From Raillietiella orientalis (taxonomy: Eukaryota): a stretch of 64,000 nt of DNA. The notes below the pieces were generated by a model. That model worked only from the letters and a program-made list of their open reading frames with translations. It searched no databases and was not told the DNA's origin. Shown in pieces: positions 18,378 through 60,598 of the stretch. Where the stretch lies: assembly GCA_036172245.1 (NCBI GenBank), contig JAYWIR010000004.1, positions 682,001 through 746,000 of the forward strand, written 5' to 3'. A program made the translations under genes and the position numbers. Numbering within the stretch: the stretch's first letter is position 1; every line of letters begins with the position of its first letter.

Positions 18378-19025
18378 ATGGCGGAAAGTGATCAACAGTT
18401 CTGTCTGAAGTGGAACAATTATCATACAAATTTACAGACTGTGTTTTCCAAACTGTATACAAAGGAGGCTTTAGTGGATTGCACATTAGCCTGTGATGGA
18501 TATAAAATTAAATGCCATAGACTTGTGCTTTCAGCTTGCAGCTCCTATCTTGAAGATCTTTTATTGGATAATCCTTGCCCACATCCAATTATTGTCCTGA
18601 AGGATGTACAGTATTGGGAACTTGATGCAGTTGTAAAGTTCATGTATTATGGTGAAGTTAATGTTTCCCAAGACAAGTTAGGAAATTTACTCAATGTTGC
18701 AGAAGCCCTAAAAATTAAAGGGTTAGCAATCACCGATGATGATAAATGTCAAAATCCATTCGAAAACAGAAAATCATTATTGGGAACTAGAGCAGATGAT
18801 CTCAATTCAAGAAAAAGAGAAGATAATGGATATATAGGCTCACTCAAAAAAAAGCCTAGAATAAGTAACAGTAGTGAGAAAGCAAATAATCAGTGCGATC
18901 GATCATCCACAATTTTATCGAACTCTTTACAACTCTGTTTTGAAAGTAATCCCAACTCAGATAAAGATGATGAAAACACTGTGCTCGATAACAGAGATTT
19001 CTCCAAGCAAAGTAATAATACAGCG
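18378..19025 (+). CDS. BTB-HTH transcription factor, constant coding exon 1 (Tramtrack-type BTB/POZ domain, 216 aa)
   Basis: TTTAG|ACAAATG; MAESDQQFCLKWNNYHTNL..LVDCTLACDG..KCHRLVLSACSSY..HPIIVLKDV..FMYYGEVNVSQ..AEALKIKGL; basic NLS-like KKKPR; phase-0 donor GCG|GTAAGC. Confidence 0.97.
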
Positions 19026-22000
19026 GTAAGCATTCATATGTTAATTAACCTGTAATTGCACGCACAATTCATTTTGGAAATTGAAAGGAACAGTATTAAT
19101 ATGTTGGTTATATTTTTAGTTTAATGAATACTATGATATGGATTTTATAATATTTGTTATTAGTTCTTATCATTTTTCAGTTTTTATAAAATCAAAAGGA
19201 GCAAAAAACAAAAACATTCTCAAGACTGGCAAGTTTGGTTGATAGGCTTCATATCACTGTTTATTGTTTATGACTATTTGATGTACTCCAGAGTTGAGAA
19301 TGAATTCACAGTGAATACACGAAATCATAATTAACGTAAAGTACATCATATATTGGAAATGCAAATGAATTTTCATTGTGTTGGTAATAATTTGCTGATT
19401 ATAATCATGACTCTTGGAGAGAGAGAGAGAGAATCATTGCTTACACCTCAGAGTTAGCAAAAACACGTACAAAATTTTTTTTCATATAAGTTAATGTTTT
19501 CTCGTAGTTGAGCGTTTCTTGTTGAAAACGTTAAAACTTGCAATTTATGCCGAGTTCTTTTGGAATGTGTGCTTGCAAGTTCCTTTATTATAGAGTGAGC
19601 GAGCAGTGTTTGCTACAATGAGCAAGTATACTAATGTTTCTTATAGTGAGCTGCTATAGGAAACATCAGTTGACCTTTTTGCAAAAGCTGGAAACATTTC
19701 GTGCTTGACAAGTACCGAGAGTTTATTAAGTTTTTTTTTTACATCCTGTCTGTTGCACTTATGTTTACAGCCAAATTGTTCAACCATCTGTTTCGTATTT
19801 TTCATTTTACATTCCACTTTTGAGTCTTTTCAATTTCTGTGTTATTTTTGTTGTGGCCCAGAGAAAGGTAAAGTAGATGAATGTGTTGTTTAATTATGTG
19901 TTCTTCAAATCATTAAAAGAACGCTTTTAACCATTTCACAAAAACTAGTAGCAGATGCTATTGACTTTAGAAATATTCAGTGGCAAAATCAGTCTAGATT
20001 TGGGTCTCAAAATCAGATGTCGCGCATTAAAAAGGACACAATGTTTGATACAATGCTTGATTCTGTTTTTCTTCGTATTGTAGGGGAAAAAATTTTCAGA
20101 GACATCAAATGGCTAAAAATTTTCATTGCCAGAAATCACTGCTTTCGCAGCAGATGCATGTGCAACTGCTTGTTTATACATGGTTGATTGATACACCGAA
20201 TGCTCGTTACTTCAAAATCATAACGAATTTAATGTCATGTTTTCAAAGTGTACAAGTTTTCAGTAGTGAGACAGCACTTTTTCCAGAAGTTGGAAATCAG
20301 ATGTAGGAATTATTTATAATTTTTGCTTGCAAAGATATAGGAACAAACGGTAAACAGATGACCCATTATTGCTTTCCATGATTTTATTACCGAATTTCGA
20401 ATGTTTAAAAGAACTTATGTAAAAAGTATGTTGGATTGATGCTTACCGATAATTATATTTTTTCAGGTTCTTTTTTCTTCAAAATTGCATCATCATCATT
20501 AAAATCATATGTAAACTATTATTTTGGAATTCAACAAAATGGATTTAAATGAAAGTTGAATTTGAAGAATTTTATAAATCATGCATACATGTTGTGTAGT
20601 TGATCACTACATTAGGGAAAAGTTCTGGATATAAATTTGAGTAAATAACTCATTTGGAGGTTTTCTTAAATAATTTTATCATTCAAAATAAGGCAGTCAA
20701 TTCATAAATTATATGAATTTGTTATAAAACTGCAAATGGAGTATACTGTTTTTCACTGTGAAACAAATATATTTTACTTTTGCATGAACACTTTAAATGT
20801 TCACAAAGTTTCCCATTTAGTGTATTCAGCCATACAGAAATTGATACAATGGTTGTGCTTATAAAAGCTTAGCCATTTTTTTCAACTTGTCAACTTCATT
20901 TAGTGAACTGATCAAATTCTGACATGCAAATTCATGGTATCCCCTCAGATCTTGAGTGCTGTATGTATTATGGTGAAGATGTGCTGTGGTAATTGGTTTG
21001 TTTCGATGAAACTAGCTGTTTCAATAGATTTAAATATTTTTGTATCTGTGTGATAATTTCAGACTGATGCAAAATTGCTATTTCTCCGTTTTTCGTTTTT
21101 TTGATGCTACTCAAATTTTTTGACCTAGCATGAAAATGGTAGAATGTTTTGTTGATTATAATAACAAACACCATTCTGGAGTGATTTTCAAATTATGCTT
21201 AATGTGCCATTCCACCTAATTTTCTTAATTTATATGTTACTTTTATTATTCAAATTATAATATTACCGTTAGCATTATGAGTTTTGCGCTTGGTGAATTG
21301 GTTTGCTCATTTGAATAATTAAGCAAAGTAAAATCATCAGTGCTGCAATTGCATTGATAATTTTACAATTTCGAAGGGTCTTGACGGTGTTGAAATGGTG
21401 TCAGGCGGTTATTTTTGAATTATTTTTTAAAATATAAGTAAATAGTAAGTCGATAAAAATTAGGTAGTAAGTTGTTAAAAAGCGCGATCTTAAGTAAGCA
21501 GGATTTTACAATTTCATAAAATTAGCATGTAATTGTGTAAAGAGAGTTTTATTTCCCTCACAAGATCCCCATCAGATACTAACATGCATTCTCTCAAAAA
21601 ACTGATGATGGATTTGTAAAATTAAATTTCATAATTAAAAGAAAACAGAGTGAAAATGTGCTTGAACTTTATTACCAGTGCCAGAATTTGTATTCAGAAG
21701 TTCAAAATAGAATTTATAATGTATGACACTTCAAACCTCCACCTATTTGATTCTGTTCTTCCAAAACTTGTGCAAAAATACTTCATTAGCACTGTTGCAT
21801 TTATAGATTGATCTGTTGCCTGATTTTATTCATTTTTTTTTTTTTTTAATTTTTAACACTAGGTTTCCATTTTTGGTAGTTACAGAAATTAAAATCATAT
21901 GTAAACTGTTCTCTGGAAATGTTTTTCACTAAATGATGATTTTGTCAAATTAATAACTGCACAATTTATTGTATTCCACATACTTTTTGATAATAAGAGT

Positions 22001-22082
22001 GTGTGCCTTATGTAGGAAGAAATTAGGTTAGCTCATTTTCAAATATTCTCTGTACTGTATTATATGATGATATTATTTATAG

Positions 22083-22142
22083 ATTGTAAAATATGAGAAA
22101 GATGATGTGAAGGATGAAGACTTCCATACTGAATCTCTTTAT
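22083..22142 (+). CDS. BTB gene constant exon 2 (IVKYEKDDVKDEDFHTESLY)
   Basis: TTTATAG|ATT ... TAT|GTAAGT; 60 nt, phase 0/0; acidic linker with VKxE motifs typical of ttk-group linkers. Confidence 0.85.
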
Positions 22143-22187
22143 GTAAGTAATTATTTGCAAACAACAGTGTATGAATCAATTTTATAG

Positions 22188-22275
22188 CCTGACATTGAAA
22201 ATGATGCTTCTGATGAATTAGTATGTGAGCAACCTAGTACTTCAGGAGGAACATTAATAGCTAGTCAGCCTGCAG
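22188..22275 (+). CDS. BTB gene constant exon 3, the last common exon, with a phase-1 donor
   Basis: Follows a 45-nt intron; TTTTATAG|CCT; PDIENDASDELVCEQPSTSGGTLIASQPA+G; donor GCAG|GTAGGC. Confidence 0.85.
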
Positions 22276-23049
22276 GTAGGCACGTTGTTATTTTTTGGAT
22301 GTTTTAGTTTGTTTACAATAAATATTTTTATCATATTCTCAATGAGGTGAGTAAGTCCTTGATTTTGGAATGTTTACAAAGCACCTTGTTTTCAACACAC
22401 GGTTCTACACACACCAAGGATGGCAGCAGGAAATAGAGTGAGCTATCCGGGCAGCAAAAATAAATAACAGCAGAGTTTAAACTGCTCATGGTTTAATATG
22501 ATAGTAGCATGATGAAATGTTATCTTAAAAACATTAATTCCATAAATAAGTTCATACAGTCGAGAAACAGGATTCTCAGATAAGATTATGCATTTTGATC
22601 TCATGGCTTTTGGTGTCTACGTGCACAAATTATAATACAGTTGTTGTGTGAACATGTGGCACTTTGAGTGACCTGACCTTAATTCCATGGTTGTGCTTTG
22701 TTTTGATTAGTAAATTAAGTTAGAATTTGTAACAGAGCTTTTATTGTATGGCTGATTTTGATGCCATTTATTGTTTAATCATTTAGCCATTTTTTCTTGG
22801 AAGATTGTATATAATTTATTTCAGAAACGATTTTTTTATTTAGATTTATAGGAGCTTAGTGTTTAGATGACTGTATTTTTGTGAACATTATCACTGTTAT
22901 ATTTGCTGCTGTTCCTTGGTTGTTAAGTGCCGTAGTGAATAGCCAGGTATTGAGTTTCCTTTCTTCCTCATACCTTTAGCCTTTTTCCATGATTGTGTTT
23001 GGCATGCTTGAGGTGACTTCTGTTTCCTATAGTACGCTGCTATTAATAG

Positions 23050-23204
23050 GTTGGCGAAGAAGTTACACAAGAGACCAGTTTAAGGATGCTTTAGATGCAG
23101 TCATTGATGGTGGAATGCCAGTGCGACGTGCAGAAAGAATATATGGGGTTCCTGAAGCAACACTTCGCATGTGGAAGAAAAAAATAACACGAGGAATCAA
23201 ATGA
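23050..23204 (+). CDS. Alternative terminal exon V1: HTH_psq domain (isoform about 316 aa)
   Basis: Phase-1 acceptor TAATAG|GT; GWRRSYTRDQFKDALDAVIDGGMPVRRAERIYGVPEATLRMWKKKITRGIK*; AATAAA at 23845-23850, before the next intact acceptor. Confidence 0.9.
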
Positions 23205-23515
23205 TACCAAAGCGGGTGTGTTGGATTTTGTGTTTCTAATTTTTTCTATTAGTTATCTGTCTGTGGTGACAATTTTTCAGTCATTTTATGCTGCTTGTTT
23301 TTGTTTTTTATCTATTACTTGCATGCTGCATGGAATACACATTCTATCATGCTAATATATATTAGACAAGAGGTCGGGTCACAGTGTTCACATGTCTGCT
23401 CCACACTGTGTGTGCTGCCCGGAATGTTGCTTTACATTATCTATAAGCTCTCTTATGTTATGCTGCTCTGCTTGTGAGAACTATTTTTAAGGTGTAGCAT
23501 TGCTTTTCTTGACAG

Positions 23516-23626
23516 GTGGGCAAGACAGGCGCAACATCGACTAGCTCGTACATAAGCTGAGAGAACTTGCTGATAGCAGTTGCAACTATTTTGATTCTGG
23601 GCCTGTCTCAACATGGAGTTCCTTAA
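23516..23626 (+). pseudogene. Possible decayed Psq cassette (pseudo-exon)
   Basis: Acceptor TTTTCTTGACAG|GT; YIS*ENLLIAVATILILGLSQHGVP* resembles YSxENLxxAVxAIxxGLSx(RxAAxx)YGVP with a deletion, stops and a frameshift. Confidence 0.3.
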
Positions 23627-23693
23627 TGCTTTGGCCTGCTTCAGTCCACCCTCAAACTTGGGGTTTTTGTCTACGTCGACAAACAATATGCTG

Positions 23694-23726
<33 letters not shown>

Positions 23727-23928
23727 CAAATCTACTTTGCAGGATGGGATGGGTGGGAATGGGATTTATGTTAAATATTGCGGTTTTGGATGAGTATTCA
23801 TCTCTCGTCGAATTCTCACCTCTAGTCCATTGTTTATTGTTCAGAATAAAAGATATACGTTCTGTAATGTAGCTGTATGCTTGCTCGTTGTTTGGCACCC
23901 CATCATCTGATAGCTTTCCTTTCTACAG

Positions 23929-24290
23929 GAGAAGCACGCAGATCACGCAATGTGAGAAGGAACTATTCCGAAGCTACGTTAAGGCGCTGTCTGCAAGCGG
24001 TTCAGAATGGACTTCTTTCTCAGTTGAAAGCATCACAACTGTTTGGAGTGCCGCAACCAACTATCAGTGCCATATTGCGCCGCCAGAAAGTGTTGCTGCA
24101 GAAAAATAACTCAGAATTCAGCAGTAATGTAGAAATTAGCAGCTATTGTAGTTTATTATGTGTACCAGAAATGTCTGGATTTTTCTCGAAATCACAGAGT
24201 GATACTGCATCATTTCAAGATACCCAGTCGTCTGTTGTATGTGAACCAAGCTATTCCCAAGAAACACATACTGAAAGAAAGGAAACTTGA
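23929..24290 (+). CDS. Alternative terminal exon V2: HTH_psq domain plus Ser/Gln-rich tail (isoform about 385 aa)
   Basis: Strong phase-1 acceptor CTTTCCTTTCTACAG|GA; GEARRSRNVRRNYSEATLRRCLQAVQNGLLSQLKASQLFGVPQPTISAILRRQK..; AATAAA at 24308-24313. Confidence 0.9.
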
Positions 24291-27200
24291 GGACAGTGAA
24301 TTTATTGAATAAATTTTCCACATCATACAATACGTTCCATATGCATTTTTATACCTCATTACTGAATACTATGCAATTTTAATCACAACGTTCATTGTCG
24401 AGATTCGAGTCCGTCTTTGTGACCAATTAGCGAGTTTCTTTTATGTTACTCCAGAAAGTTAACCAGCTTACCATGCCCGTCATGTTCACAGTTTTTTTTT
24501 TTTTTTTTTAAAGTGTCTGCATGATATTCTCTGCTGCCTGTCCTTAGTCCACCGATTTATTTGAACAACATTTGCAAAAGAGTAGAAACGCATTGCGTGA
24601 AACACACAGTAAAACCATTTTTTTTTGCTGATGGTGCCAGGTTGCTTTAACATATCCTTGCATTACTCTGCCCATTTCCGAATGTAAAGTGCACTTTGGG
24701 ATGTATTCGTAGGAATGGCCCTGTATTTTTCCCGATGACCGAAAGTATGTTTTGCGCGTGCGAATGTGTTTTCCTCCGTGAGTAGCTCCGGCGAGATCGC
24801 TTTGGTGAGCGAAGGGAACGTCCAAAAGTTTGCATTTTCCTTTTGACTGCTGCTCTTCCGAGCAGGAATGACACTGCTCATTTCTCACACCGTTTCGCAT
24901 CGTTCGCAAAGCTACCGCCTCGTAGCCCCACGAGGGAGTACCTCAATCGCTTTCCATGATATCTCCTCATCTGAAGCCATTTTTGCATAGTCTGTGTACC
25001 TTAAGTGGTGAAGGTGTTTTCACTAATCACCAGCGTGGTTTCCTAAACAGGATGCAATGTATTCAGTTTTGTAGAATATGAAATAAATGTGCAGTATTGA
25101 TCATGATATCCATTCATTTACTGAAGATAGCGATGTATGTTGCTATCAGTACCACTGTATGAGTAGGGTGGAAAGTGGGTCTCAGCTAAAATCGCCCCCC
25201 TCCCCCACCTCCCTCCCGCAGATGCCACTAAAGTTTGTTTTCCTTCCAGATGTAGCGTTCGCCTTTTTTCCTGTTTTGCTGTCTGCCCTGTATTTCTCTT
25301 CCTGCATTCCTTTGATTGCACTACATGATTCTGCATTCACTTTGCTTTTTGTTGGTGCCCTCTTTCCCCCCTTCTCATGCATTTCAGTTTTAGATCTGCG
25401 ACGACAGCGTTTCTTGAGTGAGCAATAAACGCAGATAAAATCAGCAGCCCCCCACCCGAGACACCCACGGGTTAATGTATGCTCTTTCCACACGTCGTGG
25501 CCTTTCAAGGAATGTAATTTCCTGATTTCCTTCTTTCGCATGGCTTGTATTTTCGCGGACCGAAGCTTGCGATGTGGATGCACCGTGCTCGTGAAGTTCC
25601 GGGTCATGAAAGCAGAGTTTCAGTCCTCGTCCGGGGTTGCCCAGGCACCAACTGGACATGCGGCTGCATGGAAAGTGAGAAGCCGTGCATCGCAACAAGT
25701 GTTTGCTTACATTCACTACCGTGGGATTCTTGTGCTAACGTACAGGTGCAGAGGAGCACACATCCAAGCGGTCGCCGAAGCTTCGAATTGTATTTTACTT
25801 TGTGCATGCATGTACCAGAACATTTGGCTGCCGTAGAGATCGCTGGTGCATGCACTATTCCTGCCTTAGCATGGATCAGGGAATGCACTCGGGCAAGAGC
25901 ATCTGAAAGTCGGGTACAGGAGCAAGCACAGACTAATGGAATCGCGATTTCTTTGTCACAGATCCATCTCGACACAGAGATAGGAGAGCACACAATCCAG
26001 CAGTACGATTCGACTTGCCACCCTGACGCATGCTCCCCCTCCCCCATGTGTACACCGTGTTAGACACGATCCGCTTATATGCTGAATTCACTTGATGTGC
26101 GAGGTCTCAGCAACAAGAAAATTGCAATTCCTCGTGCTGCGAACAGCGTAGCCATAGTAACGGGAACCAGCGGGGCGTACTGTCGTTCTAAAAGATATGG
26201 AAGGATACGTGTAATTTTTTCCAAGAGGGAGCTCACTGTCCGCTTTTCTTGAGGGTTCCCAAATCCCTGCTGGGTAAAGCCTACCCCCAACCTAACAGTG
26301 ATGGCTAACCTTGGCTAAAAAAAAAAAGAGAGAATTAAAGCAGTGCACAAACTTGTTTTTTCCAGCTGCAAATCAAAGGCGCGCATTCCTCGTATTATTC
26401 CGAGTTAGATCCAGGACTCAAAGTTGTTTGTGTGGGGCAGCTGTGAACACGAAAAGTGAAAATGCGTTAGGTAGCATAACGGTTCTGGGAAATCAATCCA
26501 CGGCTCTGAGGGTAACTGACTCTGAGGTAAGGACTTCGCTCCCCTGTTACGAGGTTCGACATCGGCGTAAGAGCTGCTTTTCCCACTGGGCTACTCGATG
26601 TCATCATTCATTTATATACTTTTACTGATTCGTATATTTAAACATCATATACACTCTTAAAGTGTGCGCGAATTCCGCGTCTTCACGAAAATCCTGCAAA
26701 GGCAATCTTTTCTCAGTCACCGGTAAGCGCTCATAACATCTGTTGTTTTTTGGGCCACACAGACGCCAACACACATTGGTCCAAGGGCATTTTTGAAATC
26801 TGTATCAAGATCACACCTTTCACGTCATTCCAAGGAATGTCGATCGTCCGTTGCATATTGGCCTTTTTTTTTGCGTCTGTCGCTAACACACTTTTCCGTG
26901 TTCAGAACTAAGACGATAGAGTTTTGCGTCAATTTTGGGCTGCAAATACGATCGCGATAAAATTGCAGTGGATGTCCACGTGAAGAATCCGAAGAAATTC
27001 CCGAGTCACCGGAAGGCAATACCCAGGTCACCAACCGAAGACCAAACGCCCAAATGATCACAGCGGGCCCTACTCGCAGATAGACCTACGTATTTTCCTT
27101 GTGTATTTTCACTGCATCAGAAAATGAAAATTACATCGATTTTGTGCTGATGTGAAGGCGGCGGTTCACTTTTTATACGCGAAGAATGCCGAGGGTTCTC

Positions 27201-28199
27201 TGCATGTTCACGTGCAAGCCTGTATGTGCTTGGGGACTCCTCCTTTCGTTACCTAATGACTCCATGCTTGTAATTACGAAACATTTCAAAAGAACACACA
27301 TTCTGGTCTTATAATCATCAGCCAAAACACTAAAGGATTCCAGAAGGCAAGGAATAGTAGTGCGCAGACATCGCACAAAAAATCTATTAATTATGCAAAC
27401 AAAAGCTTTTTGGATAGGGCAAGTAGTAATGAAAGACACGTGAAACCTGAGACACCGAAATCGATGCTGAGGATGTGTGTGATCTGACGTGAACTGAAAA
27501 GCACTCAGCGTTTATTGTTTTTTATTTTTTTCAGAAGTAGGCGAGGGTCCATTCCGGACAAGATCCAGTAAAACAGGAGAAAGATTACAAGGCAACAAAC
27601 GCTGCACGTAGCACGCACGGTACCATCTTGCACAGACTTGGCTGCAAGTTGCGCTCTCTTTCAAGTATGTAACGCGCCTGAAAACGTGATGCACGACCAG
27701 AACACTAATGGGGCTGGCTTCAAAGAACCACACGAGTAAGAGATGCCTGTTTCCTTGCGGAAGCAGGCTGGATACCAATGAGAGAATTTCTAGTAAACTA
27801 AACTATTCCAAAAACCTGATCTGAAAGTGCTCCTTCGGAAGGGCGCAAAAAAATAAAATAAAATAAAACGACTTCTTTTTCTAAAGTGGTCCTTTTTTTG
27901 TCTATTTACCGGTCTTGAGAATACGAAACCGCGTGGCACATGCAGCAGTGTAATGAAAGAAACGTTACGAAGCAAAGAATGGAGCGAATTCCGAGATCTG
28001 CACCGGCACAAGTGGGGCCATTCCGACACTCCGTGCACAAACGCCAATCTGTAGTTAGAGTGAACGAACAAAAAAACCGCAGGCAACAGCTTCGGCATCA
28101 CAACGAACTCACAGTGCACAGCCTCAATTTTTATACTTTAGAAAGTCACCTGAGCACCAAAGATTAACGTACCTCTGTTTCAAATTTCCTTGAAGCTAC

Positions 28200-29250
28200 G
28201 TTAGACCGACCGGTCCCGGTGTCCCGCCGAACGAGCTCTTCGTCTCGGAGCAGGAAGGGGCGCCCCGAAGCCAATCCGCGGCATCTTCCGGGGAAAACCT
28301 GCGGCTCCTTCAGAAGGGCGCCGACTAGACCCAATGTGAAGCCAACAGCAGCACGTCAGGCGGCGGAAGACCTGACCGCGGATAGGGGGACATCCGAAGC
28401 CGAAAAGGAGCCGAAGAAGAAAACCAGCAAGCAAGTAAAGGAGTCGACGCAGGGAGACCACCGCCTGAGAGAAAGAGCACGGACTCTGAGAAAAGGCGCC
28501 GGATTCCTGGCCGATCGTGCGAACTGGTTGCCGAAATACGGAACAGGGTCGCCGAATGCTGCGCAGGCTGGGAGACGGCCATCAGCCCTGCGAGTACACG
28601 GTCAGTGGAGAGCAGCTGCCCGGGCAGTCGAGAAAGAGAGGGCATGCAGCTGGCGGCGGTACCGAGCCGCCGACCCTCCCACGATGAAACGGGAACCAAG
28701 CAAAGAATCAATCGCGCGCTTCGCGTCTCAGGATCTCTTCCCGATCTCCGCAAGCAGCTCTTTTGGCCTTTATCCGCGTCTTCCTGCATTCCTCAGGCTT
28801 GGGATCTCCCACTTGCCAGCTGCTGATGCTGCTGGGGACTCGGCCCTCTGCTCAAAGTCCCAGCCGGAATCCTCCCTGCTTTCTCCTGCGGCTTTCTGCT
28901 CGCTCGCCAGTCCCCACCCCACCCTTGCGCTTCCTTCCTTCGCCTGGCGCGTATCCCGAGGGCGCTTCGCACGTGTATCAGGTCGATACAGCCGCTTTCT
29001 CGACTGGCGACGGGCGTCCTCCTCGCTCGTCGCAGGCGCCACGGCGACGGTCACCTGATGATGGTTCGAACGCGCCGCAAAGACGGATTCCTCCTTGTGC
29101 CCTGCGAGAAGGTGGCACGCGGTCGAGCCTCGTTGGAAGCCGGCACCTCGGCAAAGCAAAGATAACTGCGGTCCTCCACAACGGCATTGTGGCCTTGCCA
29201 TCTTTTCGAAGCAAACAAATACACCAGGATCACTAGGATGCACCCATGAC
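28200..29250. other. GC-rich island, probably a decayed retroelement ORF1/gag-like segment (unclassified)
   Basis: Abrupt GC shift; minus-strand CFEK..QCRCGGPQ..C..CHLLAGH loosely resembles gag zinc knuckles. Confidence 0.2.
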
Positions 29251-30050
29251 TCGGTACTTTAGTGAGTTGGTTTCCAGTCTTTTAGCAAGCGCGTCCATCT
29301 CGTCGTTTTTGTCCAAGAGAAGGGGACTGAGAGTCTGCAGGAAATTTCGTTTCATCTCTGGTTCTGCCTTTTCCGCAATCTTTAACACACGTTCGAACCG
29401 CATTTAAGGAACTTCAAGTTTTCATGCTACCACGGTGGTGAGTCTTGCTGTCTATTATGCAATTTAGCTTTTTTTCCCCTTTCCTCAAAGGATTGTTTGC
29501 TTGGTGTCGTTAAAAATCACCAGTAGCATCGCCAGGCGGAAGCGACCACCGTGCTGGTCTGCAAGCGAGTCTTTCCATAATTTCCGGAACACGAAAGAAA
29601 GGATTTCTCACCTGGTACCAATAATATGAAGACTCACGCTGGATGCCCCAATGCTATTATAACTAATTCCATCGAGGCTTCGAAAAATAAGTAAAATCAA
29701 ATGCTCATTCGAATTCCTGCATACACTAATGAAAGCCCAAATCAAACATACGATGTTTTGTGAACATTGACACTATAGAGTCAAACGGAAGCTTTGCTTT
29801 CAAAAAGAACCAATGAAGAATGTAATACGAAGCTTTCTTCTGATGGTCTTCTCATCGCGTGTTCTGGATTCACATTTCCGTCATCTTTGATGCATTTGTT
29901 GCTCAATCAATCTTCCTCTTCCTCTTTTCTTTTCTCACACGCACATCACGAAACACGCAGTACTTTAAATGGATTCGCTGTTCATCCTACTAACACCTAT
30001 AACACAGGTGATTTTTTTTTAACGAAGGCACTGGTTCCAGATGACACATA

Positions 30051-30098
30051 ACGAGATGCCGTGTTTCAGGCTGGTAAGCATGAAACACGGCATCTCGT
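30051..30098. repeat. Perfect 18-bp hairpin with a 12-nt loop that can pair further
   Basis: ACGAGATGCCGTGTTTCA-GGCTGGTAAGCA-TGAAACACGGCATCTCGT. Confidence 0.95.
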
Positions 30099-30170
30099 GG
30101 TCGAGGTAGTCATCATAGAAGTCTGACAAAGGGAACTCGTTGCTAGCGTTGCAGTAGTTCGTATTTCCAG

Positions 30171-30362
30171 ACACCTGGAATGCTGTCAGTGTTCTGAATT
30201 ATTCCGAAAGATTACGACGCATGAATCACGCCATGAATCTTGGAAGATTCATCAGCAGCACGATTTCTTGACGTTAGTGCTCCCAAATTTTACACGTCTT
30301 CTACTCTAGGCACTTCACACCAGTGGTTATTGCCTATCTCCTTAAAGCCATTTGGAGGGTAG
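30171..30362 (+). pseudogene. Possible decayed Psq cassette resembling V2
   Basis: Phase-1 acceptor GTATTTCCAG|AC; NYSE-RLRRMNHAMNLG versus V2 NYSEATLRRCLQAVQNG (9 of 17 identical); then frameshifted SAARFLDVS..STL. Confidence 0.3.
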
Positions 30363-30452
30363 CCGGAGCTACCGCTGACCTCATGCGTCTCCTGGCTGGC
30401 ACGACTGCAAATAGGAAGAATTTTTTTCTTCTATTCATGGTTTCATGATACA

Positions 30453-31410
30453 GGCTAACGCTGGGCGATGTTCTCGGATGGAAGATCCGCGCGCGCAAGT
30501 AACGAAGATCAATGCGGTGCCGACTCGGTCCTGCGCTCGGCCGGAAGCAGCGAGTCGCAAAGTTTCGCGGAGCCAAGTCGACGGCGCGCGCACCAGGAAA
30601 GCTTTTCCGTCTGCAGGCGCCAACGGGCTGCGGTGCACCCGGAAGCTGCGGAGGCTCTGGACGCGGCTGGCGCGGTGGGTCTCTGCGTTGAACCGACTGG
30701 TTGCTGGTCCGGTTCCCCCAGCTGCTGGCTTCTCGGGACGACGTGGGCCCCTTGGTTTCGCCCATCGAGAGTAGGCTGGTGCAAGAAGGGCTCGTGCTGG
30801 GTTGTGGGTGGACGTGGACGCTAGGATGAAGCGACGGGATGCCTGCTCGCCGTACGTCCGGCGCCGCTGGGTGCAGCGTGGTCGAGGCGAAATCGCAGCG
30901 GGGCGGCGGCGTTTGTTCGGGATCGCCTACCCGGGAGTGGAGGCCTCCGTCGTGGTGGTGGCACCACGACAAACGACCAAGGGGTGTTCCTTAGTCGCTT
31001 CCTCGGGGGCGGCGAGGGGTTCGCGTCCTTTGCCGAATGGGAAGCGCTCAAACGCGGTGTCCGAGGCCTTCCTGAGAGCCAGTTCTTCATCTGCGGCGCC
31101 AGGCTCCCGTGCCTCTTTCGCGACACGCGGAACGACGTCCGTGCCACGTCCGGCACGTGGCACGGACGCGGGGACAAGTCCGCTCCTGGAGGTCCATCGG
31201 TGCGGAATCTCGTCGAGAGCGCCACGGGATCCGAAGCGTGGAGTCGCTTACAGGAAGCGACTCCAAGAGCATCAATAAAGCATGGGAACAGAACAGCCCC
31301 TGGCGTTTGATTGAATGATTTTTGCTGCTCTAATTGAGTGCAAGATGACAACGGTTAGGTTTCTGGAGTTCAGAGAACCGCATTGATACTGCATATCTTT
31401 TCCAAAATTT
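30453..31410 (+). mobile_element. Decayed L1/Tx1-like ORF2 5' part (APE endonuclease to start of RT); copy A of the duplicated segment (30453-31239)
   Basis: Across frameshifts: VTKINAV..R...VD..HQES (TxN..D..QE), VVGG/DVDA (GGDFN), TNDQGVFL (SDH), EWEALKRGVR, then GNRTAPGV (KAPGxDG) and QRTALILHIFSK. Confidence 0.6.
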
Positions 31411-32412
31411 TGTATCCAGTGAAAAAAGTACCACGAATCAATTCCAAATTTTTGAGATTTTTGAATATTTAAAACAAGAGAGATCATTTTTTCTTGAATA
31501 AAAAAAAGAAAGTTCACAAAGTTCACACTAAACGAGAATTTGTTATCAAGCCGTGTATATCGTATGTTGCAAAGCAGCAACCATAAAATTGATTTTTCGA
31601 GAAATAACGCAGAGATCGGATGAAACGAAGAGTTTCAGCATGGAGAAACCTTTGATGTCTTGACTGGTTGAAAGACAGTTCCCACTGCTCACCCGAAGGC
31701 TTTTCAGACTATGCCAAATCGGGATGGACGTTAACTACAACACTGCCTGCATGTTTAACATCAAGGGATCAGTCGACTTTAGATCCCAAGCAAATGCTTG
31801 CGTAGCCTTTTTCCTAACCGAGCGGCTCGAAGACGGTCCTTCCGAACAGATAGTCTGGGGGCTATGGTCAAGTATGAAACGCAAAGACGAGAGCAGATTT
31901 CGAGCGTTTAACTTCTGGATCAGGAAGATGTGTTCCATAGCTCCTATGAGTAGAAGGGATTTTTGCCTAGAGTTTTTCGCAATAACCCTCCAGTGTTTGA
32001 CTTCCAGAATGGTAAATAATCCGCTTAACGACTTTTCCCGAAAACGGAAACCATACTCCAAGATCACTTACAAAGTTCCTGTGCAATTGTTTCAGTTCAA
32101 CAACTGACTGTATTTTGCCACATACGCTTTCATGATGTAAACACAATCCCCCCCCCCCTCTTTTTTTTTTTTTTTGTATGTAAATTCGGATTTCTGGAAT
32201 TCGGCAATATCTTCTGTTTCGGACTTCGCGGCGGGGTGCTTTGCGACGATGCTGTGTGGCTCACCAACCACTATACCCTTAGAATAAAACTGCAACTTAC
32301 AGTCGAAATTCAACATCTATTCTCGAAATCCACGAAAAGCTTCATGTTTATGCACTTTTCCATTTTTTGAGTTCACAGAAATGTTTGATATAAAATGATG
32401 ATTCTCACGCAG

Positions 32413-32645
32413 GTGAACATCTCAAAGATGCGCTCGTTTTCAACTCGAAGAGACATTATTCCGCTGAAGATCGAATCCAAGTGATGAATTCGCTTCTTGG
32501 AGGAATGCGAGTGACTGCTGCAGCTAAAATGTACAACATCCCGAGATCAACAATCAAACACTGGAAAAATAATTATCACGTATTAAGCAGACGTGTAACA
32601 TCGATACACTGTGGCAACTTCAAAGACCTTGGTTTCCACGGTTGA
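32413..32645 (+). CDS. Alternative terminal exon V3: Psq/CENP-B-type HTH (isoform about 342 aa); absent from the supplied ORF track
   Basis: Phase-1 acceptor ATTCTCACGCAG|GT; GEHLKDALVFNSKRHYSAEDRIQVMNSLLGGMRVTAAAKMYNIPRSTIKHWKNNYHVLSRR..FHG*; AATAAA at 32773-32778. Confidence 0.8.
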
Positions 32646-42292: not shown

Positions 42293-43149
42293 TTAATAGA
42301 GACTGGCCTTTTTCATTATTCTCAAGAAATCTTCCTGATTCACTTCTCCAAGACCTGTTCTATCAGCTTCACTAATCATTTCCTAAAAACAAATTACGTC
42401 AATTTCAATAGAAACTGTTTAAAGTTACTATTTACGGACCTATCCTTTACCATTAATGCAGGAAGACTTAGTAAAAATTTTGTGAAATGTAAAAAGTAAA
42501 CATGAAGCTATATATGCAGAAGAAAAAGTGAAAAAGACTTAAAACACATAAAGCCTAGGACATCAAAACAAATTTAAACCTAGCATACAGTAATGATGAA
42601 TTTCTTGTACATGCACCTCATGAAGAAGCAAGTTAGAAACAAACACATCAGTGACCTGCAATTCTTCATCAGTGATTTTTTCACCAAGCTCTTCTGCTAC
42701 ACGCTTTAAGTTTTGAAAAGAAATGGTGCCGGTGTTATCATCATCAAATAACTGAAAGGCTTTTAAAATCTCCTCTTTGCTGTCAACTTCTGCCAGCTTG
42801 CTTGATATTAACAAAAGGAAATCATCAAAAGTAATCTTATCTTAAAGAAGTAATGTTTACAAATCCAGTTACTTATATATCTTACTTTCTGATTCCTGAT
42901 TCACTTCCAAAATCATCTTTTTGATTTCTTCCTTTTTAGGTTCAAATCCAAGAGCTCTAAGAGCAACCTAAAGAACAACTTTAAAAAGAGATTACATTGA
43001 TTTCTTTTAACTTTTAAATCTTTAGCATCAATACTTCCAGTTCCTTCAACATCAAACAAATCAAAAGCTTCTTTTATGTCTTTTTTCTGTTCTTCGGTCA
43101 ATTCAAATTTCTGGGATTTTCGTTTGGTTGCAGCAATGTTTTTGTTCAT
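42293..43149 (-). CDS. CETN2: Centrin (centrin-1/2 type, 164 aa); exons 43149-43012, 42967-42886, 42840-42656, 42382-42293
   Basis: [112 protein letters not shown]; all introns GT-AG (44, 45, 273 nt) and phase-consistent. Confidence 0.95.
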
Positions 43150-46100
43150 TTTTAACACAAGATTACCTTCTAGAAAAATTAAGATTACTGTTGAGGCAGC
43201 TTAACAGAAGTGCATCACTTCTACAAGTGTAAAATTTATCCAGTGAAAACGTTATCGAGTATCTGGAAAAACATTTCTCTTGGTGCACAATCACATAGTT
43301 CATTGGAGCCATTAAAATAAAATTATATTGATAATGCAGTTTAAAACATAAATCTTGTTAAAATTTCGCTTTCAACTACTTTGTATCCAGAGTCTTGATG
43401 GAAATTACCATTAAGTACAATACCAACGCCATGAAAACCACCAGAAAAAGAATATAATTTGAATGGTATGCGATTAATTTTTATCCGTATAAGGAAAAAA
43501 AAAAAGGAAAACAAAAAACAAAGTTTGATGTAAATCTGAAGGAACTTGGGCCTTAACGTAACTTGCAACGTATTTCAACTAGCACTTATTTCCAGCATGT
43601 GCAAATTATCACAATAAATTCAAAATTCTCAACCATGCCAATCATCCATACACGTATCTCAACTGTTCCCACAAATATCAAGTGTATTTTACACTTTATT
43701 TTCATGAGCCTGGTGCGTATTTGCACAAACTTTTACTCAATCGTCCCACGAGCAGCCTCCAAAGAAAATGCTAAGGCTGCAGCCGAAAAGCGAATGTCTC
43801 TTAACAATGCCAGAAAATAATAATACATATGGAAAATTCAATACACTTAATGAATTGTCAGTGCAATTTCATGGGTCATTGATGCTTCACATCATTTAAC
43901 AAAATAGATGGGGTGGGTGGGGGGAGGGGGACAACGAATTGGAGAGAAACATGCATTTGTAACTCGTGCCCTGCATTGAAGGAAAAAATGGGAGCAGGTT
44001 GTCGGCAATTGCGTCGGTAATTTGGTTTGAGCCTGCAGCCTGAAGTCTTCGAATTTGAGCAATGGGAAAACTCTCGTCTTACACTTTTGAAAACACTAAA
44101 CGTAATGTGTTTGGCTCGTCGATAATCGTTTAAACAGATCCAGCATCAGTGGATCATTTACAGTTCCTCTAAGAGGAACGATTTAAAAGAACGATCTCAC
44201 CGGAGAGCATGGAGCAAGATCAAACCTTGTGATGCTGAAGCACCACAGTTGATAACTTGAGATGATCAAGCACATCTAGTTCGAATTAGAAATCCTACAG
44301 GATCTCATTTTAGTTCTGCTCCGGGAACCTCCAGCTTGGCAGCTTTGCTATCCAATTTGGCAAGCAACAAAGCCATACAACATGCAATGGAATGAGCAAT
44401 TGGATTCATACACAAAAAAAAGCCATCAAATCCATTTATCTCATTTGCAATGGATAGCAAAGCAATACAGTAGTTCTATTCTTTCATAGACATAAAAATG
44501 GCACATTAACACGCAGATGGTTAAATACAAGACTGGCTTACTACTGATTTTCCATGCAGATGTGAATTCAAATTCCATAATAATTGATAGCATAAATAGC
44601 TTCATTCAAAGTCAACTCTTGGAAACTACTGAATACTGAAACAGATCTTTGTTCTTGTGAACGTTCGATATTAGTTCTTTGTATTACCATTTTTATTTGT
44701 TTTTTGTTTGAACACTGTGAATGTAAAGCTATATTAAAAGGATACGAAGTACAAAATCCTGAACTATTTGATTGAATTTTTGATGAACTATAAAATAATA
44801 AACAAGACAGGTAGATCATGTACTAAGTTTTTGAATTTAGGAATTCTGCTTTTTGTGTGCTTGAATTTTAAAGACGATGAAACTGCTACGTGAATCCTTG
44901 TCTTCCTTAAGTTCCAATAAGTCCTGATAGTGTGTTTGAATTCTAAATTTCATTAGGAAACAAAAACACGTACCAAGCTTAAAGATGAGATCAAAAATGA
45001 ATTACAGTGATTGCGATAATTAGTCATAAAACTTGTTTCAAGCATAAAATCACAAAAGACGATAATGTGATTAAAGAGAAAAATACAAGTATATATGAAA
45101 TCTACCAAACTGTAGAGTGTAGTCGAAAGACCCGACTCCGATTTACATTCGAAAACTCGACAACCAAACTTAATCAAAAACGGCAATAAAACTATTTAAC
45201 GCCAACGCTTAAATGAAAGAATCCTCATCTAGTTTTGCTCTTGAGAAATATTTTTCATGTTTTCTGATGGTTTTTCTGTTCTTGCTTAAAACAGCAAGAT
45301 TCGTTGAGATCGCACATTACAACGATAAAGAAAGCTTCATTAATAAGTTCATTTGGAAAGACGTAAAAGAATACGTAACCATAAGACTTGAAACTTCTTT
45401 CATACATGAGAAAGATTGTCTATAGGTATGCATTATTATTTTTGTTGGAATGTATAAAGCTTTGGTGTCTAAAACTTTCGAAGCTTGCATTAAGTTCAAT
45501 ATAAGTATGGCAAGAGTGATGATTACTGTGCAATCACATGAATGCACACGAGTAGCTATTTGAACCTACATGAAATCTTCATGTTTTCATATATACAAAC
45601 TTGAGAGCCTTTACAACCGTGAAACTACTGCAAAATCAAAATTGTGAGGAAAATTCACACAGAAGTAGATGAAGCCATTCAAGCTTGGAATGAATCGTTC
45701 GGCTCCCCATCTTTTATTTGACTATCTCCATTAGGTTTTCCCTCAATCTTTTATTTACCAAACAAGCATCATTTGCTTGTTTTTCATAAAAGAAGCTTGT
45801 CATATTGTTATTATTATTATTATTTGCCTTAATCATGGCAGTCTGATCAGTGTGATGAATGTGTATCATATCTGTTGTTAAGAGTTGGAATTTTTAGATT
45901 CTGTTCAGAATTTCATCTTATTCCTGCCTTCCTTTGAACTCTGGGTTTAGACGATAGGTGACTCATGAAACTCGTCTTGCTCTCCCTATCATTAAGATGC
46001 GAGGAATTGGTTTTCCAAGGAAAAAAGGCATTTTTTTAAGCATTTAAAATACAAGAGGTGATTGGTTTTGTTTAAAGCAAAGGCATTTTCAACTTGGAAT

Positions 46101-53046: not shown

Positions 53047-54529
53047 CCACCACTTCAAACCTTCCGAAGTCGACCCCTTGTCCAAGTCGCCGTACCTGAT
53101 CTCTGCCGCCGCCGGGGATTCCAGGAGATACGCGCAGATAGAGCAGCAGGTAGAGAGATCCCATTCCGTGGAGTCCGGACTCCACCACGCCATGGGGGGA
53201 CGAGTGCCTCCGCTGTAGAAGCAGATCTGGATCCAGAGGCAGAAACTCAAGAGGCAGACGCCACTGCTCGTGCAGGCGTCCGACCGCCCTTTGTCTTCGT
53301 CGATGGGGTGTGTGCGGACGAAGTGGGTGAAGCCCGTTTCGGCAGAGCAGCGCTTCGAGAGGATGTCCGAAGCCGCCTCTGAAGGCGACCTGGCACGACA
53401 GAGCAGCACGGAGAGCGCCAGCAGCAGCAGGGACGAGACCGGGTCTGTAGAAACTCTGGTCCTTTCCGAACCCGAGGACGAGGACGCGGTCTTCGGCACC
53501 AAGAAGAGTTCTTATCCTACTGAGGAGGCAGGTTTCTTTCTATCCCATCCCCAGGAGCCGGAGTGGCCTCCATTCTCCCTCCTCCTCCGTGCGTCACCTT
53601 CCTTCATCCAGAACCAGGTGCTGGCTCCGGCGAGCTTTGAGATGCTGGGAAGCGTTCCGTACGTCGACTGTCTGTTCATGTACCCTCCCGCTGCGGGCAG
53701 CGAGATCCGTTGTCGCATCATCCGCGACAGAAAAGGGGTCGACCGAGGTCTGTACCCCACCTACTTCCTGCACATGGAGTCGAGCGATGGTCGTAAGGTA
53801 AACAAGAGAGAAATCCCATTCCTCCTTGTCGTCCATCTCTCTGAGGATCCGTTTCAACAACACCACCCCCGCAGGTTTTCCTCCTGGCCGGGAGAAAGAG
53901 GAAGCGCAGCCGCACGAGCAATTACCTACTGTCCGCGGATCCGACCGACCTCTCTCGTGATGGGGAGTCGTACGCCGGCAAGCTGCGCGCCAACATGCTG
54001 GGCACGCAGTTCACGCTGTTCGGGCGGCCATCGCCGTCGTCGCCGGGCGCCAGCGATGGCAGCGCGGGCAGCCCGGAGCTCGCCGTCATCTTATACGTGA
54101 GTGCACGGACGAGTGAAGCCGCGCCGCAAGAGTCGATTCGCGGTCCAGGAGACCAACATCCTAGGGTTCCGGGGTCCAAGGAAGATGACCGTCCTTTTGC
54201 CGGGAGCTGAGCCGTCCGTAGACGCCAGCGGCCTGGTGGCCCAGTGGCAGTCCGGAAGCCGCGCCGTGGTGGAGCTGCGCAACAAGACGCCGAGCTGGCA
54301 CGACGACACGCAGTCGTACGTTCTCAACTTCCGGGGCCGCGTCACGCAGGCATCCGTCAAGAACTTCCAACTTCTGCGGGTGAACGACACGGACAGCGAG
54401 GCCGTGCTGATGCAGTTCGGTCGCGTGGCGACCGATGCGTTCACCATGGACTTCCGGGCTCCTTTCAGCGCTCTCCAGGCTTTCGGGATAGCCCTGAGCA
54501 GCTTCGACGGCAAGCTGGCCTGCGAATGA
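53047..54529 (+). CDS. TUB: Tubby-family protein (king tubby/TUB/TULP-like); exons about 53047-53149, 53219-53797 (possible internal GC-AG intron), 53875-54096, 54149-54529; start codon not resolved
   Basis: N-terminal helix [26 protein letters not shown]. Tubby domain: [22 protein letters not shown]..|[111 protein letters not shown] at 54828-54833. Confidence 0.95.
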
Positions 54530-57500: not shown

Positions 57501-58919
57501 TCGAGGTACCGATCGACCACAAAAGTGTTGATTAAAGTTATCATTATACTCGTTCATTTGTTAATAATCTCTTTAAACTTATTCGACATTTTTAAGATAT
57601 CAGAAAGATAAAAAACAATATAAATTCTATACGACATCTAGAAAAACCGCGAATAGTTAGCCGATGTAAATAGAATTTTGTCTACTGTCGTTGCTAAGGT
57701 AATTATAATAACATAAATGGATGTGTCCATCTCAAACATTGATAGTGACAACTTATGTCGCATGTATAAGATGAAAACATTTTCCAAACGCATAGATGCG
57801 TCCATAACGCACGCTGATAGCTTCCGTCGCACTCATGTATGCGCCCACAGCACTCAAAGGGTTGATGGAGTACGAGGCGATTGCACTTCGGACTAATAAA
57901 ATCTCACAGATGGCCATTCTATCGGTGGCGCATGCATATTTCGTGGGGTACGATCTGCAGCAGTTGCATCTTCGCATTCGTGGAATCGCCGCAGTGATCC
58001 TGTTCTCATTGTGTCTCAAAAAGAAAAAGGAGCCGCAAGAAACCCTGCAAAGACTAGGTTGCAAAACAGATAGCAAGAGCTGCACATGGATGTGAATCCT
58101 CAAAGCTTAGTCATATGGAGAGATTTTCGAAATGAAAGCGAAGAGAGAGGTCCAGTTTCTGCCTCCTTCACAGTAGCTACGAGAGTTTCAAAGTCTCCTC
58201 TGGAGGCTACATCGAAAGTCATTTCAGCTTCTAGCATTCTCCTGTTTTCTGTTCCCCCGTGAATCCTCCTCTGTACACAGCCTCTGTTCGCATTGCGCAC
58301 ACGATGCTCGGTCCCGCTAGAGTGGCTTCTGTGCGCTACAGAGAATCGGACTGCAAAACGCCTGCAATGACCTGACATCTGCCAGTTTCCCATGCATCCA
58401 TCGAAGAAACATCACGATTCTTGTCCAAGAGCGTCGGCAGGCACACCAGCAGTAAAATACATCCAACAGGAAGATTTCGCGGTTCAACTTTGTTCTTTCC
58501 TGCAAAAAGTTCGAAACTTTCCAGGCTAAGTTCCGGTGTTTTCTTCGCAGCAGGAAGTTCCGCGCGCAAACCAAAGCATCTAGGATTCACGAAAGGCAGC
58601 ACGTTATTAGCCGTCAACAGTGAACCTTCTGACCAAGAAGGAAATGCTCTGCTACGTTCCGGTTCGTGCTTCGAGGGACACAAAAGAGAAGAGCAGCAAA
58701 GAGCACGCGTCACGGTTTTGCAATGGCGTCTTAAAGTTCCCTGCAATGGGCATCCCCCAAACGTGCTTCCATTTGCATCGACCTGCCAACGCTCCTGCAA
58801 TGAGGATTCTTTCATTTAGTGCATTGCATGTTCTCTGTTAGGAATGCTCTAAATCATCTTGACAACCAAAGTAAAAAAATAGGTTTTATGCAAGACCTGG
58901 GGAATCCGATTAATGAACG

Positions 58920-60598
58920 GGCTAACGCTGGGCGATGTTCGGATGGAAGATCCGCGCGCGCAAGTAACGAAGATCAATGCGGTGCCGACTCGGTCCTGCG
59001 CTCGGCCGGAAGCAGCGAGTCGCAAAGTTTCGCGGAGCCAAGTCGACGGCGCGCGCACCAGGAGAGCTTTTCCGTCTGCAGGCGCCAACGGGCTGCGGTG
59101 CACCCGGAAGCTGCGGAGGCTCTGGACGCGGCTGGCGCGGTGGGTCTCTGCGTTGAACCGACTGGTTGCTGGTCCGGTTCCCCCAGCTGCTGGCTTCTCG
59201 GGACGACGTGGGCCCCTTGGTTTCGCCCATCGAGAGTAGGCTGGTGCAAGAAGGGCTCGTGCTGGGTTGTGGGTGGACGTGGACGCTAGGATGAAGCGAC
59301 GGGATGCCTGCTCGCCGTACGTCCGGCGCCGCTGGGTGCAGCGTGGTCGAGGCGAAATCGCAGCGGGGCGGCGGCGTTTGTTCGGGATCGCCTACCCGGG
59401 AGTGGAGGCCTCCGTCGTGGTGGTGGCACCACGACAAACGACCAAGGGGTGTTCCTTAGTCGCTTCCTCGGGGGCGGCGAGGGGTTCGAGTCCTTTGCCG
59501 AATGGGAAGCGCTCAAACGCGGTGTCCGAGGCCTTCCTGAGAGCCAGTTCTTCATCTGCGGCGCCAGGCTCCCGTGCCTCTTTCGCGACACGCGGAACGA
59601 CGTCCGTGCCACGTCCGGCACGTGGCACGGACGCGGGGACAAGTCCGCTCCTGGAGGTCCATCGGTGCGGAATCTCGTCGAGAGCGCCACGGGATCCGAA
59701 GCGTCGCTTCTCTTCTCGAAGGGGAGTGGAACCGCTCTTTCTCCAATTGAAGACTTGCTGTGCTCTCCTTGAGAATTCGTGGCGGCAGGTTGTCCAGTTT
59801 CAGTTCGGGAATCCGACCGCTCGGGGCGAGCGCCAACATATGTCGAACGATTTCTTTTCCTGAGAAAAGGGCTGCTGTGCCAATGGCCCACCCAGATGAG
59901 CGACTGGGGGCGCACGCGCATATGGGAGGTTTCTCCTGGTGGGTCGCCAGTTTCCGGAGGCTGTGCCGAGCGCTCATCGCAGACTCATCTGGATCAGGGG
60001 ACAGCGCCAAGGATGCAGCTCCGTTTTCGTCTGGCAATGTCAGGTGCGCTCCCTTTTCGTCAGCATTGTCACTGCTGAACGGCGTGCTGCACACACCCAG
60101 CTGCAGCACGAACTCTGCTTGTTTTTTCCAAGGGTAGGTTGTCTTCTATACGTCGCACGTGATGGGCGCCACCCACAAGTCTTTGTGCGGAGTGCCTGCT
60201 CGCCAGCTGCCTCCGTGGCAGTGCTGTGCTGTCCACGCGGAGCCTGAGTCTCCAGGAATGAGATCTCCAAGAGTGGACGACCTGACAGGAGAGCGATTCC
60301 CTTCTCCATCCGGTTAATGCGGATGGCTGCGAGGTGCAACCTCTTGCGCAGGTACCAGCAGGTGCTCGCCGGCATCCAGCAAAGGATGCAGAGGACCACA
60401 TCGCGGGATGTAATCCCTTCCCTCTTCCCTGCAACTTATCCAGAATGCTTTTATTTTTTCTTTTTTCCTAATCCCTTAACCCCTCCGTGATGTTATGCGT
60501 GATGCTCCCCTCCAGATGGATTTTCGGACACGATGGATCCCCCCTATTTATGTATTTATTTTTTGTAAAAAATGAACGCTTTGACGCAGATGAGTGAA
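58920..60598 (+). mobile_element. Internally deleted L1/Tx1-like LINE: APE segment (copy B, 58920-59704) joined to an RT motif-4 remnant, C-terminus and 3' UTR
   Basis: Near-identical to 30453-31239; then RRGV/GTALSP/IEDLL (RGVRQGCPLSP remnant). The 3' end is homologous to the 13634 element (GCATCC..AAAGGATGCAGAGGAC, ATCCCTTCCCT, ATTTTCGGACA). Confidence 0.7.

Follow-up and report, generated by a model that had tools for sequence, protein, structure and literature searches.

A Tramtrack-group BTB gene of Raillietiella orientalis with candidate alternative last exons encoding Psq-like helix-turn-helix domains

The DNA considered here is a stretch of 64,000 nucleotides from Raillietiella orientalis (GenBank assembly GCA_036172245.1, contig JAYWIR010000004.1, positions 682,001 to 746,000 of the forward strand), referred to below as the window. 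It contains a gene with a BTB domain of the Tramtrack (TTK) type, the 5′ exons of which run into an open splice donor at position 22275 of the window. Three open reading frames (ORFs), denoted V1, V2 and V3, follow on the same (+) strand within 10.4 kb of this donor, each encoding a helix-turn-helix (HTH) domain (Table 1). The arrangement resembles that of insect genes in which a common BTB part is combined with alternative DNA-binding ends.

The constant BTB exons and the candidate last exons V1 and V2

Exon 1 encodes a TTK-type BTB domain, which scores 78.2 bits with Pfam PF00651 (E = 6.4e-22; cut-off 20.5 bits), and a linker, the basic patch of which, KKKPR, would serve nuclear import. Its N-terminus carries the motif FCLKWN, in which lysine replaces the arginine of FxLRWN, the N-terminal-extension motif that marks the BTB domains of the Tramtrack group (PMC11426971). 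The lysine form is also found in the spider records P0069 and P0076, and the pattern F[CS]L[RK]WN occurs in 239 of 240 related BTB proteins. A self-search with the BTB domain revealed no second BTB exon in the window.

Two short exons, 2 and 3, probably complete the constant region. Their donors match the consensus at 7 of 9 positions, in line with the three constant donors as a group, which score 6–7 of 9. The intron between them is only 45 nt long, and very short introns do occur in this genome, since a Tubby-family gene elsewhere in the window has one of 52 nt. When joined, exons 1 to 3 translate into 265 codons plus 1 nt without a stop and end in phase 1 at 22275, which bears out what a preliminary description of this DNA had proposed for the constant part.

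Table 1. Features of the BTB gene and of its candidate last exons, in window coordinates (slashes mark splice sites)
Feature	Position	Strand	Remarks
Exon 1	18378–19025	+	648 nt, 216 codons; ATG at 18378; phase-0 donor GCG/GTAAGC (19025/19026)
Putative exon 2	22083–22142	+	60 nt, 20 acidic residues, phase 0 to 0; acceptor TTATAG/, donor TAT/GTAAGT
Putative exon 3	22188–22275	+	88 nt, 29 residues plus 1 nt; acceptor TTTATAG/, donor CAG/GTAGGC, leaving phase 1
V1, candidate terminal exon	23050–23204	+	Single Psq HTH; 51 codons, then TGA; stop 23202–23204
V1 poly(A) signal AATAAA	23845–23850	+	Sole canonical signal between V1 and V2
V2, candidate terminal exon	23929–24290	+	Psq HTH plus a 75-residue Ser/Thr-rich tail; stop 24288–24290
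V2 poly(A) signal AATAAA	24308–24313	+	18 nt past the V2 stop, at the end of the AT-rich gene body
V3, possible third terminal exon	32413–32645	+	Generic three-helix HTH; stop 32643–32645
V3 poly(A) signal AATAAA	32773–32778	+	128 nt past the V3 stop

Each V exon begins, after an AG acceptor, with the last two bases of a GGN codon and stays open to its own stop. The phase-1 acceptors, stops and downstream AATAAA signals that the earlier description had listed for exons at 23050, 23929 and 32413 are all present in the sequence. V1 and V2 both pass the Pfam model HTH_psq (PF05225, cut-off 20.4 bits), V1 at 2e-10 with 40.6 bits and V2 at 7.3e-8 with 32.5 bits, and V1 in addition matches the HTH of LCoR in the PDB (1.8e-4). 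The guanine-plus-cytosine (GC) content at third codon positions (GC3) is 0.275 in V1, which in this respect resembles the constant exons (range for the constant exons and V1 together, 0.10–0.30). The acceptor of V2 is strong (CTTTCCTTTCTACAG/), whereas that of V1 is moderate, its pyrimidine run being broken by purines. Open-ended BTB exons are thus followed by at least two exons, each of which encodes a DNA-binding domain and has its own stop and poly(A) signal, as expected for a layout of alternative last exons.

The window as a whole is of very uneven composition, with an AT-rich body at 16–24.4 kb (GC 0.29–0.37) among stretches of GC 0.44–0.59. The body of the BTB gene forms a sharp compositional island, and neighbouring stretches reach 0.52–0.59. 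The putative 3′ untranslated region of V1 includes some 20 consecutive T and then some 17 A (23695–23727), and a single tandem repeat, a trivial 19-nt pair, lies within the V2 tail.

V1, V2 and V3 are the sole HTH-like ORFs in the window. A loose regular expression for the turn motif matched 12 of the 1708 ORFs of at least 25 residues, and a narrower one, [YF][GN][VI]P..T[LI], matched these three only. When searched against the window with tblastn and phmmer, V1 was found to be related both to V2 (5e-5, 32% identity over 37 residues) and to V3 (1.6e-4 and 2.6e-5, 28–29% identity), and the best match of V3 within the window is V1, at the second of these values. The same searches gave no significant similarity between V2 and V3, and nothing below E 0.57 between the V exons and the rest of the window. 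That three ORFs with related HTHs share a strand and follow an open BTB donor within 10.4 kb is not a product of chance. All the V exons are intact in spite of an identity of only 28–32%, and this speaks for long maintenance. Regular expressions for further DNA-binding exons of the C2H2 and FLYWCH kinds returned five chance-like strings, none of them in a domain context, and Rfam gave 0 matches.

It is likely that V1 and V2 serve as alternative last exons, while the status of V3 is uncertain. The explanation that we favour, with moderate confidence, is that of a bric-a-brac-like Tramtrack-group BTB gene of a divergent arthropod, the BTB part of which would be joined to either V1 or V2 as alternative last exons, with V3 perhaps as a third.

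If instead a single HTH end-exon were functional, most likely V2, the other HTH ORFs would be unused duplicates that have not yet decayed. This is unlikely in our estimate, although the acceptor of V2 is much the strongest of the three, its poly(A) signal follows the stop after only 18 nt, the AT-rich gene body stops right after this exon, and V1 has a purine-interrupted acceptor and a distant AATAAA. Identities of 28–32% speak of old duplications, and yet all the frames and HTH cores are intact. V1 has also kept third positions as AT-rich as those of the constant exons, and insect relatives have two alternative Psq ends, as described below.

Serial splicing of the V exons into one multi-HTH protein, such as Pipsqueak or a five-HTH BTB protein of Trichogramma, is very improbable indeed. 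All V frames reach a stop at 8 to 75 residues past the HTH, and among donors in the phase needed to chain the V exons, none that follows an HTH exceeds 5 of 9, compared with 6–7 for the constant donors. The idea draws on the database matches of V3, which are dominated by multi-HTH proteins with 4–10 matched stretches each, and on the Trichogramma record P0362, with its BTB and five tandem HTHs.

Several points weigh against the favoured arrangement. The junctions between the BTB part and the V exons are inferred from the sequence only, and their common splice phase adds little to the case, because the three ORFs have 6, 8 and 4 AGs upstream of their HTHs, making a phase-1 AG nearly certain by chance; it is the quality of the acceptor that counts instead. 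Putative exons 2 and 3 were recognised by their splice motifs and not by homology. Alternative in-frame joins are also present: exon 1 contains phase-1 donors at 18946 and 19012, and at 22980, 70 nt ahead of the V1 acceptor proposed here, lies a phase-0 acceptor rich in pyrimidines that suits the donors of exons 1 and 2. The BTB–HTH junctions given here are therefore provisional. The sole AATAAA of V1 is 640 nt past its stop, with the V2 acceptor only about 80 nt further on, and an in-frame ATG precedes the HTH in both V1 and V2, which could therefore stand alone. A collection of 5.8 billion proteins contained no ortholog of exon 1, the best identities being 42–63%. The remaining points of this kind concern V3.

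The third candidate exon, V3

V3 is a much weaker candidate than V1 and V2. The preliminary description had seen a Psq/CENP-B-type HTH in each of the three exons. This holds for V1 and V2, which exceed the HTH_psq cut-off, but not for V3, which reaches 16.1 bits with HTH_psq against the same cut-off of 20.4 and 20.6 bits with CENP-B_N, just under the cut-off of 21.2. The models that V3 does pass are HTH_28 (8.6e-7, 29.4 bits against 25) and HTH_23 (2.1e-6, 27.8 bits against 24.6). Its acceptor is weak, with a poor pyrimidine tract (TTCTCACGCAG/), and its GC3 of 0.416 shows no AT bias at third codon positions. V3 is also separated from V2 by 8 kb of GC-richer DNA (GC 0.46–0.49) that includes a duplicated element of 798 bp.

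An AlphaFold model of V3, built on an alignment of 9 rows, has three helices (residues 17–28, 33–40 and 44–65), with a block-mean predicted local distance difference test score of 92–94 over residues 21–50 and an overall mean of 71. Compared with solved structures by Foldseek, the model resembled generic HTH and homeodomain folds only, none of them at E ≤ 0.001, and the V3 sequence had 0 matches to solved structures at E ≤ 1. In a HMMER search of 1.84 billion representative sequences, V3 had 66 matches at E ≤ 1e-3, of which not one reached E ≤ 1e-30. The highest scores belong to proteins with 4–10 HTH repeats, including records from starfish, Selaginella and Trichogramma. Per-domain identity to these relatives is 23–48%, the best being 48%; by this measure and by the HMMER scores, V3 is without a close relative. 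Among its best 40 matches, one has a BTB domain (the Trichogramma record P0362) and three have DDE_1 or Tc5.

V3 alone, or V3 together with V2, may lie outside the BTB gene, either as a relic of the N-terminal HTH of a mobile element or as the last exon of an unrecognised transcription unit that starts in the GC-rich DNA at 24.5–32.4 kb. The chances of this are close to even, if slightly short of it, and it is compatible with the favoured interpretation for V1 and V2. The best Pfam models of V3 are generic or transposase-associated (HTH_28, HTH_23 and HTH_Tnp_IS630), and carriers of DDE_1 or Tc5 outnumber BTB carriers among its best matches. It is 8 kb away from V2 in DNA of different base composition, and one copy of the 798-bp element, 99.1% identical to the other, lies 1.2 kb upstream of it. 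Against this, no remnant of a transposase was found by Pfam in the ORFs scanned or by tblastn. The result also speaks against an alternative named in the preliminary description, that V2 and V3 are 5′ ends of pogo/Tigger transposase relics.

The first Pfam scan found no DDE_1 or Tc5 in 150 of the 160 ORFs of at least 55 residues between 24.3 and 46 kb, the remainder being V3 itself and nine ORFs at 44.3–45.9 kb, three of which were covered in the second scan. That scan found none in 150 of the 178 ORFs of at least 75 residues outside 18.3–44.1 kb, the other 28 lying at 59.3–63.9 kb. A tblastn search with 92 V3-related proteins, three of them with transposase domains, gave 111 matches in the window: 53 to V3, 39 to V1, 12 to V2, 6 to the BTB exon and 1 that begins a little before V3. 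The flanks of V3 contain weak inverted pairs only (76–88% over 16–29 nt), with no convincing terminal inverted repeats among them, and no further copy of V3 was found within the window. V3 moreover lies on the same strand as the BTB gene, has V1 as its best match in the window and lacks a methionine codon upstream of its HTH, and for this last reason needs an upstream exon. Use of V3 by the BTB gene nevertheless seems somewhat less likely than not.

Database relatives, known systems and a possible mechanism

The relatives of exon 1, at 42–63% identity, are distributed evenly among insects, spiders, mites, a sea spider and a centipede, and mostly bear automatic names of the "bric-a-brac-like" sort. 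Bab is described as the most ancient member, with representatives in each of the four arthropod subphyla (PMC5026256). Outside Arachnida, the HTH domain is stated to occur only with TTK-type BTBs (PMC11426971).

Among the 240 BTB relatives, 11 have an HTH with the sequence YGIPKGTL (type A) and 46 have one with YDIPYPTF (type B). Six pairs of records are identical over 203–320 residues counted from FCLRWN and then diverge, one partner having a type A and the other a type B Psq end. These are P0133/P0137 from Leptopilina heterotoma (332 identical residues from the start), P0150/P0168 from Macrosteles quadrilineatus, P0213 of Tribolium castaneum with both P0217 and P0218, P0206 with P0222 of Tenebrio, and P0207/P0226, which are unnamed Logan records. 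Pfam scans of two pairs confirmed a different HTH_psq in each partner. The Logan contigs are 1.8–2.8 kb long and hold complete proteins of 425 and 638 residues, which suggests that they derive from transcripts. The paired insect records are annotated as "bric-a-brac 1-like" and come from Hymenoptera, Hemiptera and Coleoptera.

The preliminary description had taken BTB-Psq genes to have a fixed Psq module, a premise that these six pairs contradict. Its broader proposal, a cassette system of swappable HTHs, survives in part: the layout fits alternative last exons for V1 and V2, while V3 is much the weaker and the premise of a fixed Psq fails. A literature search found no published description of alternative Psq end-exons or of two-Psq-end alternation in insect bab-like genes, and the latter, seen across three orders, may merit a separate look.

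The locus in R. orientalis is like these two-end genes in that a common BTB N-terminus would be followed by different HTH_psq C-termini. V1 resembles the YGIPKGTL type over the other one, with median scores of 20.0 bits for type A and 11.5 for type B; V2 shows no preference (6.5 and 6.7 bits), and V3 slightly prefers type B (11.1 against 7.2 bits). The insect records are database models and assembled contigs, however, with C-termini much longer than those found here. The present locus also differs in its possible third exon, and with a BTB identity of only 42–63%, any orthology between them is tentative.

In the Drosophila genes lola, mod(mdg4), fruitless, broad and tramtrack, common 5′ exons for a TTK-type BTB are followed by alternative 3′ exons, each providing a DNA-binding module together with its own stop and poly(A) signal, and the locus described here is laid out in the same way. 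In contrast to the lola-type loci, its variable module is a single Psq-like HTH rather than C2H2 fingers or FLYWCH, and there are two or three variable exons only, all on one strand and known here from sequence alone. Since all the V exons are on one strand, trans-splicing need not be invoked. Isoforms of TTK-type BTB proteins are said to differ in their DNA-binding domains (PMC11426971).

A protein of the architecture predicted for the constant part joined to V1 exists in Strigamia maritima (T1JFA7, P0201), with a BTB, a linker and one Psq HTH that ends 9 residues before the stop, although this is a single protein record. In Trichogramma, LOC106657569 (P0362/P0427/P0428) likewise links a BTB to HTHs of the subtype RRSYS...GMS...IP.ST..W, to which V1–V3 belong. 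These records have two BTB matches and five HTHs of this RRSYS...IP.ST..W subtype, which, unlike the V exons, are arranged in tandem in one polypeptide and are not alternative ends. The N-terminal HTH of pogo/Tigger/CENP-B-type transposases shares the superfamily fold, and the Psq domain family reportedly includes transposase members (Siegmund and Lehmann 2002). The locus is unlike pogo/Tigger elements in the absence of Tc5 or DDE_1 from the ORFs scanned, of convincing terminal inverted repeats and of extra copies in the window.

In the mechanism that we propose, the BTB-bearing 5′ part would be joined to one last exon by alternative splicing coupled to alternative polyadenylation. The weak proximal acceptor of V1 and the strong distal acceptor of V2 would make for a regulated choice. 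Use of V1 would involve splicing to its acceptor and cleavage near 23865; otherwise, the polymerase would read through to the strong V2 acceptor and, more rarely, to V3. Multimerisation of BTB domains has been demonstrated for the TTK family (PMC11426971). By family membership, the BTB of exon 1 may be expected to multimerise as well, presumably as hexamers. Multimerisation could give avidity to single HTHs of low affinity and short target sites, and mixed multimers of different isoforms might combine HTH specificities.

Should the junctions be real, the gene would provide one multimerising BTB scaffold with two or three different single-HTH reading heads, and would be a small system well suited to asking how DNA recognition diversifies among TTK-type BTB factors. 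The swapping of DNA-binding ends would then extend to Psq domains outside insects. The gain would be incremental, because insect gene models already show such a design and it agrees with what has been stated in general of TTK-type BTB proteins (PMC11426971). The kind of system is not new: the locus joins the known TTK-type BTB genes with alternative DNA-binding end-exons, possibly as a three-way case. A bolder version, which we regard as rather doubtful, is that all three exons are used, making the gene a compact, HTH-swapping counterpart of lola in an arthropod of deep divergence, with V1 as the counterpart of the insect type A end. Psq alternation on a single bab-like BTB would in that case be ancient among arthropods and predate the zinc-finger and FLYWCH cassettes of insects.

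Surroundings of the gene

GC-rich stretches at 28–31 kb and 53–60 kb contain long ORFs in several frames, without domain matches. The only long repeat in the window is a GC-rich segment of 798 bp that occurs twice in direct orientation, at 30442–31239 and 58910–59704, with 99.1% identity between the copies; no protein domain was found on it.

The Tubby-family gene lies at 53845–54526 on the + strand and has a GC-rich coding sequence in two exons (Pfam Tub, 6.8e-16 and 1.7e-46). The 52-nt intron that separates them was read by eye across the conserved junction ELAVILY/ETNILGF, and the Tub exon is only 46–66% identical to any animal record, which, like the distance of exon 1 from its relatives, points to a divergent arthropod. 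On the opposite strand, at 42566–43200, there are two ORFs with EF-hands that are probably exons of a gene for a calcium-binding protein.

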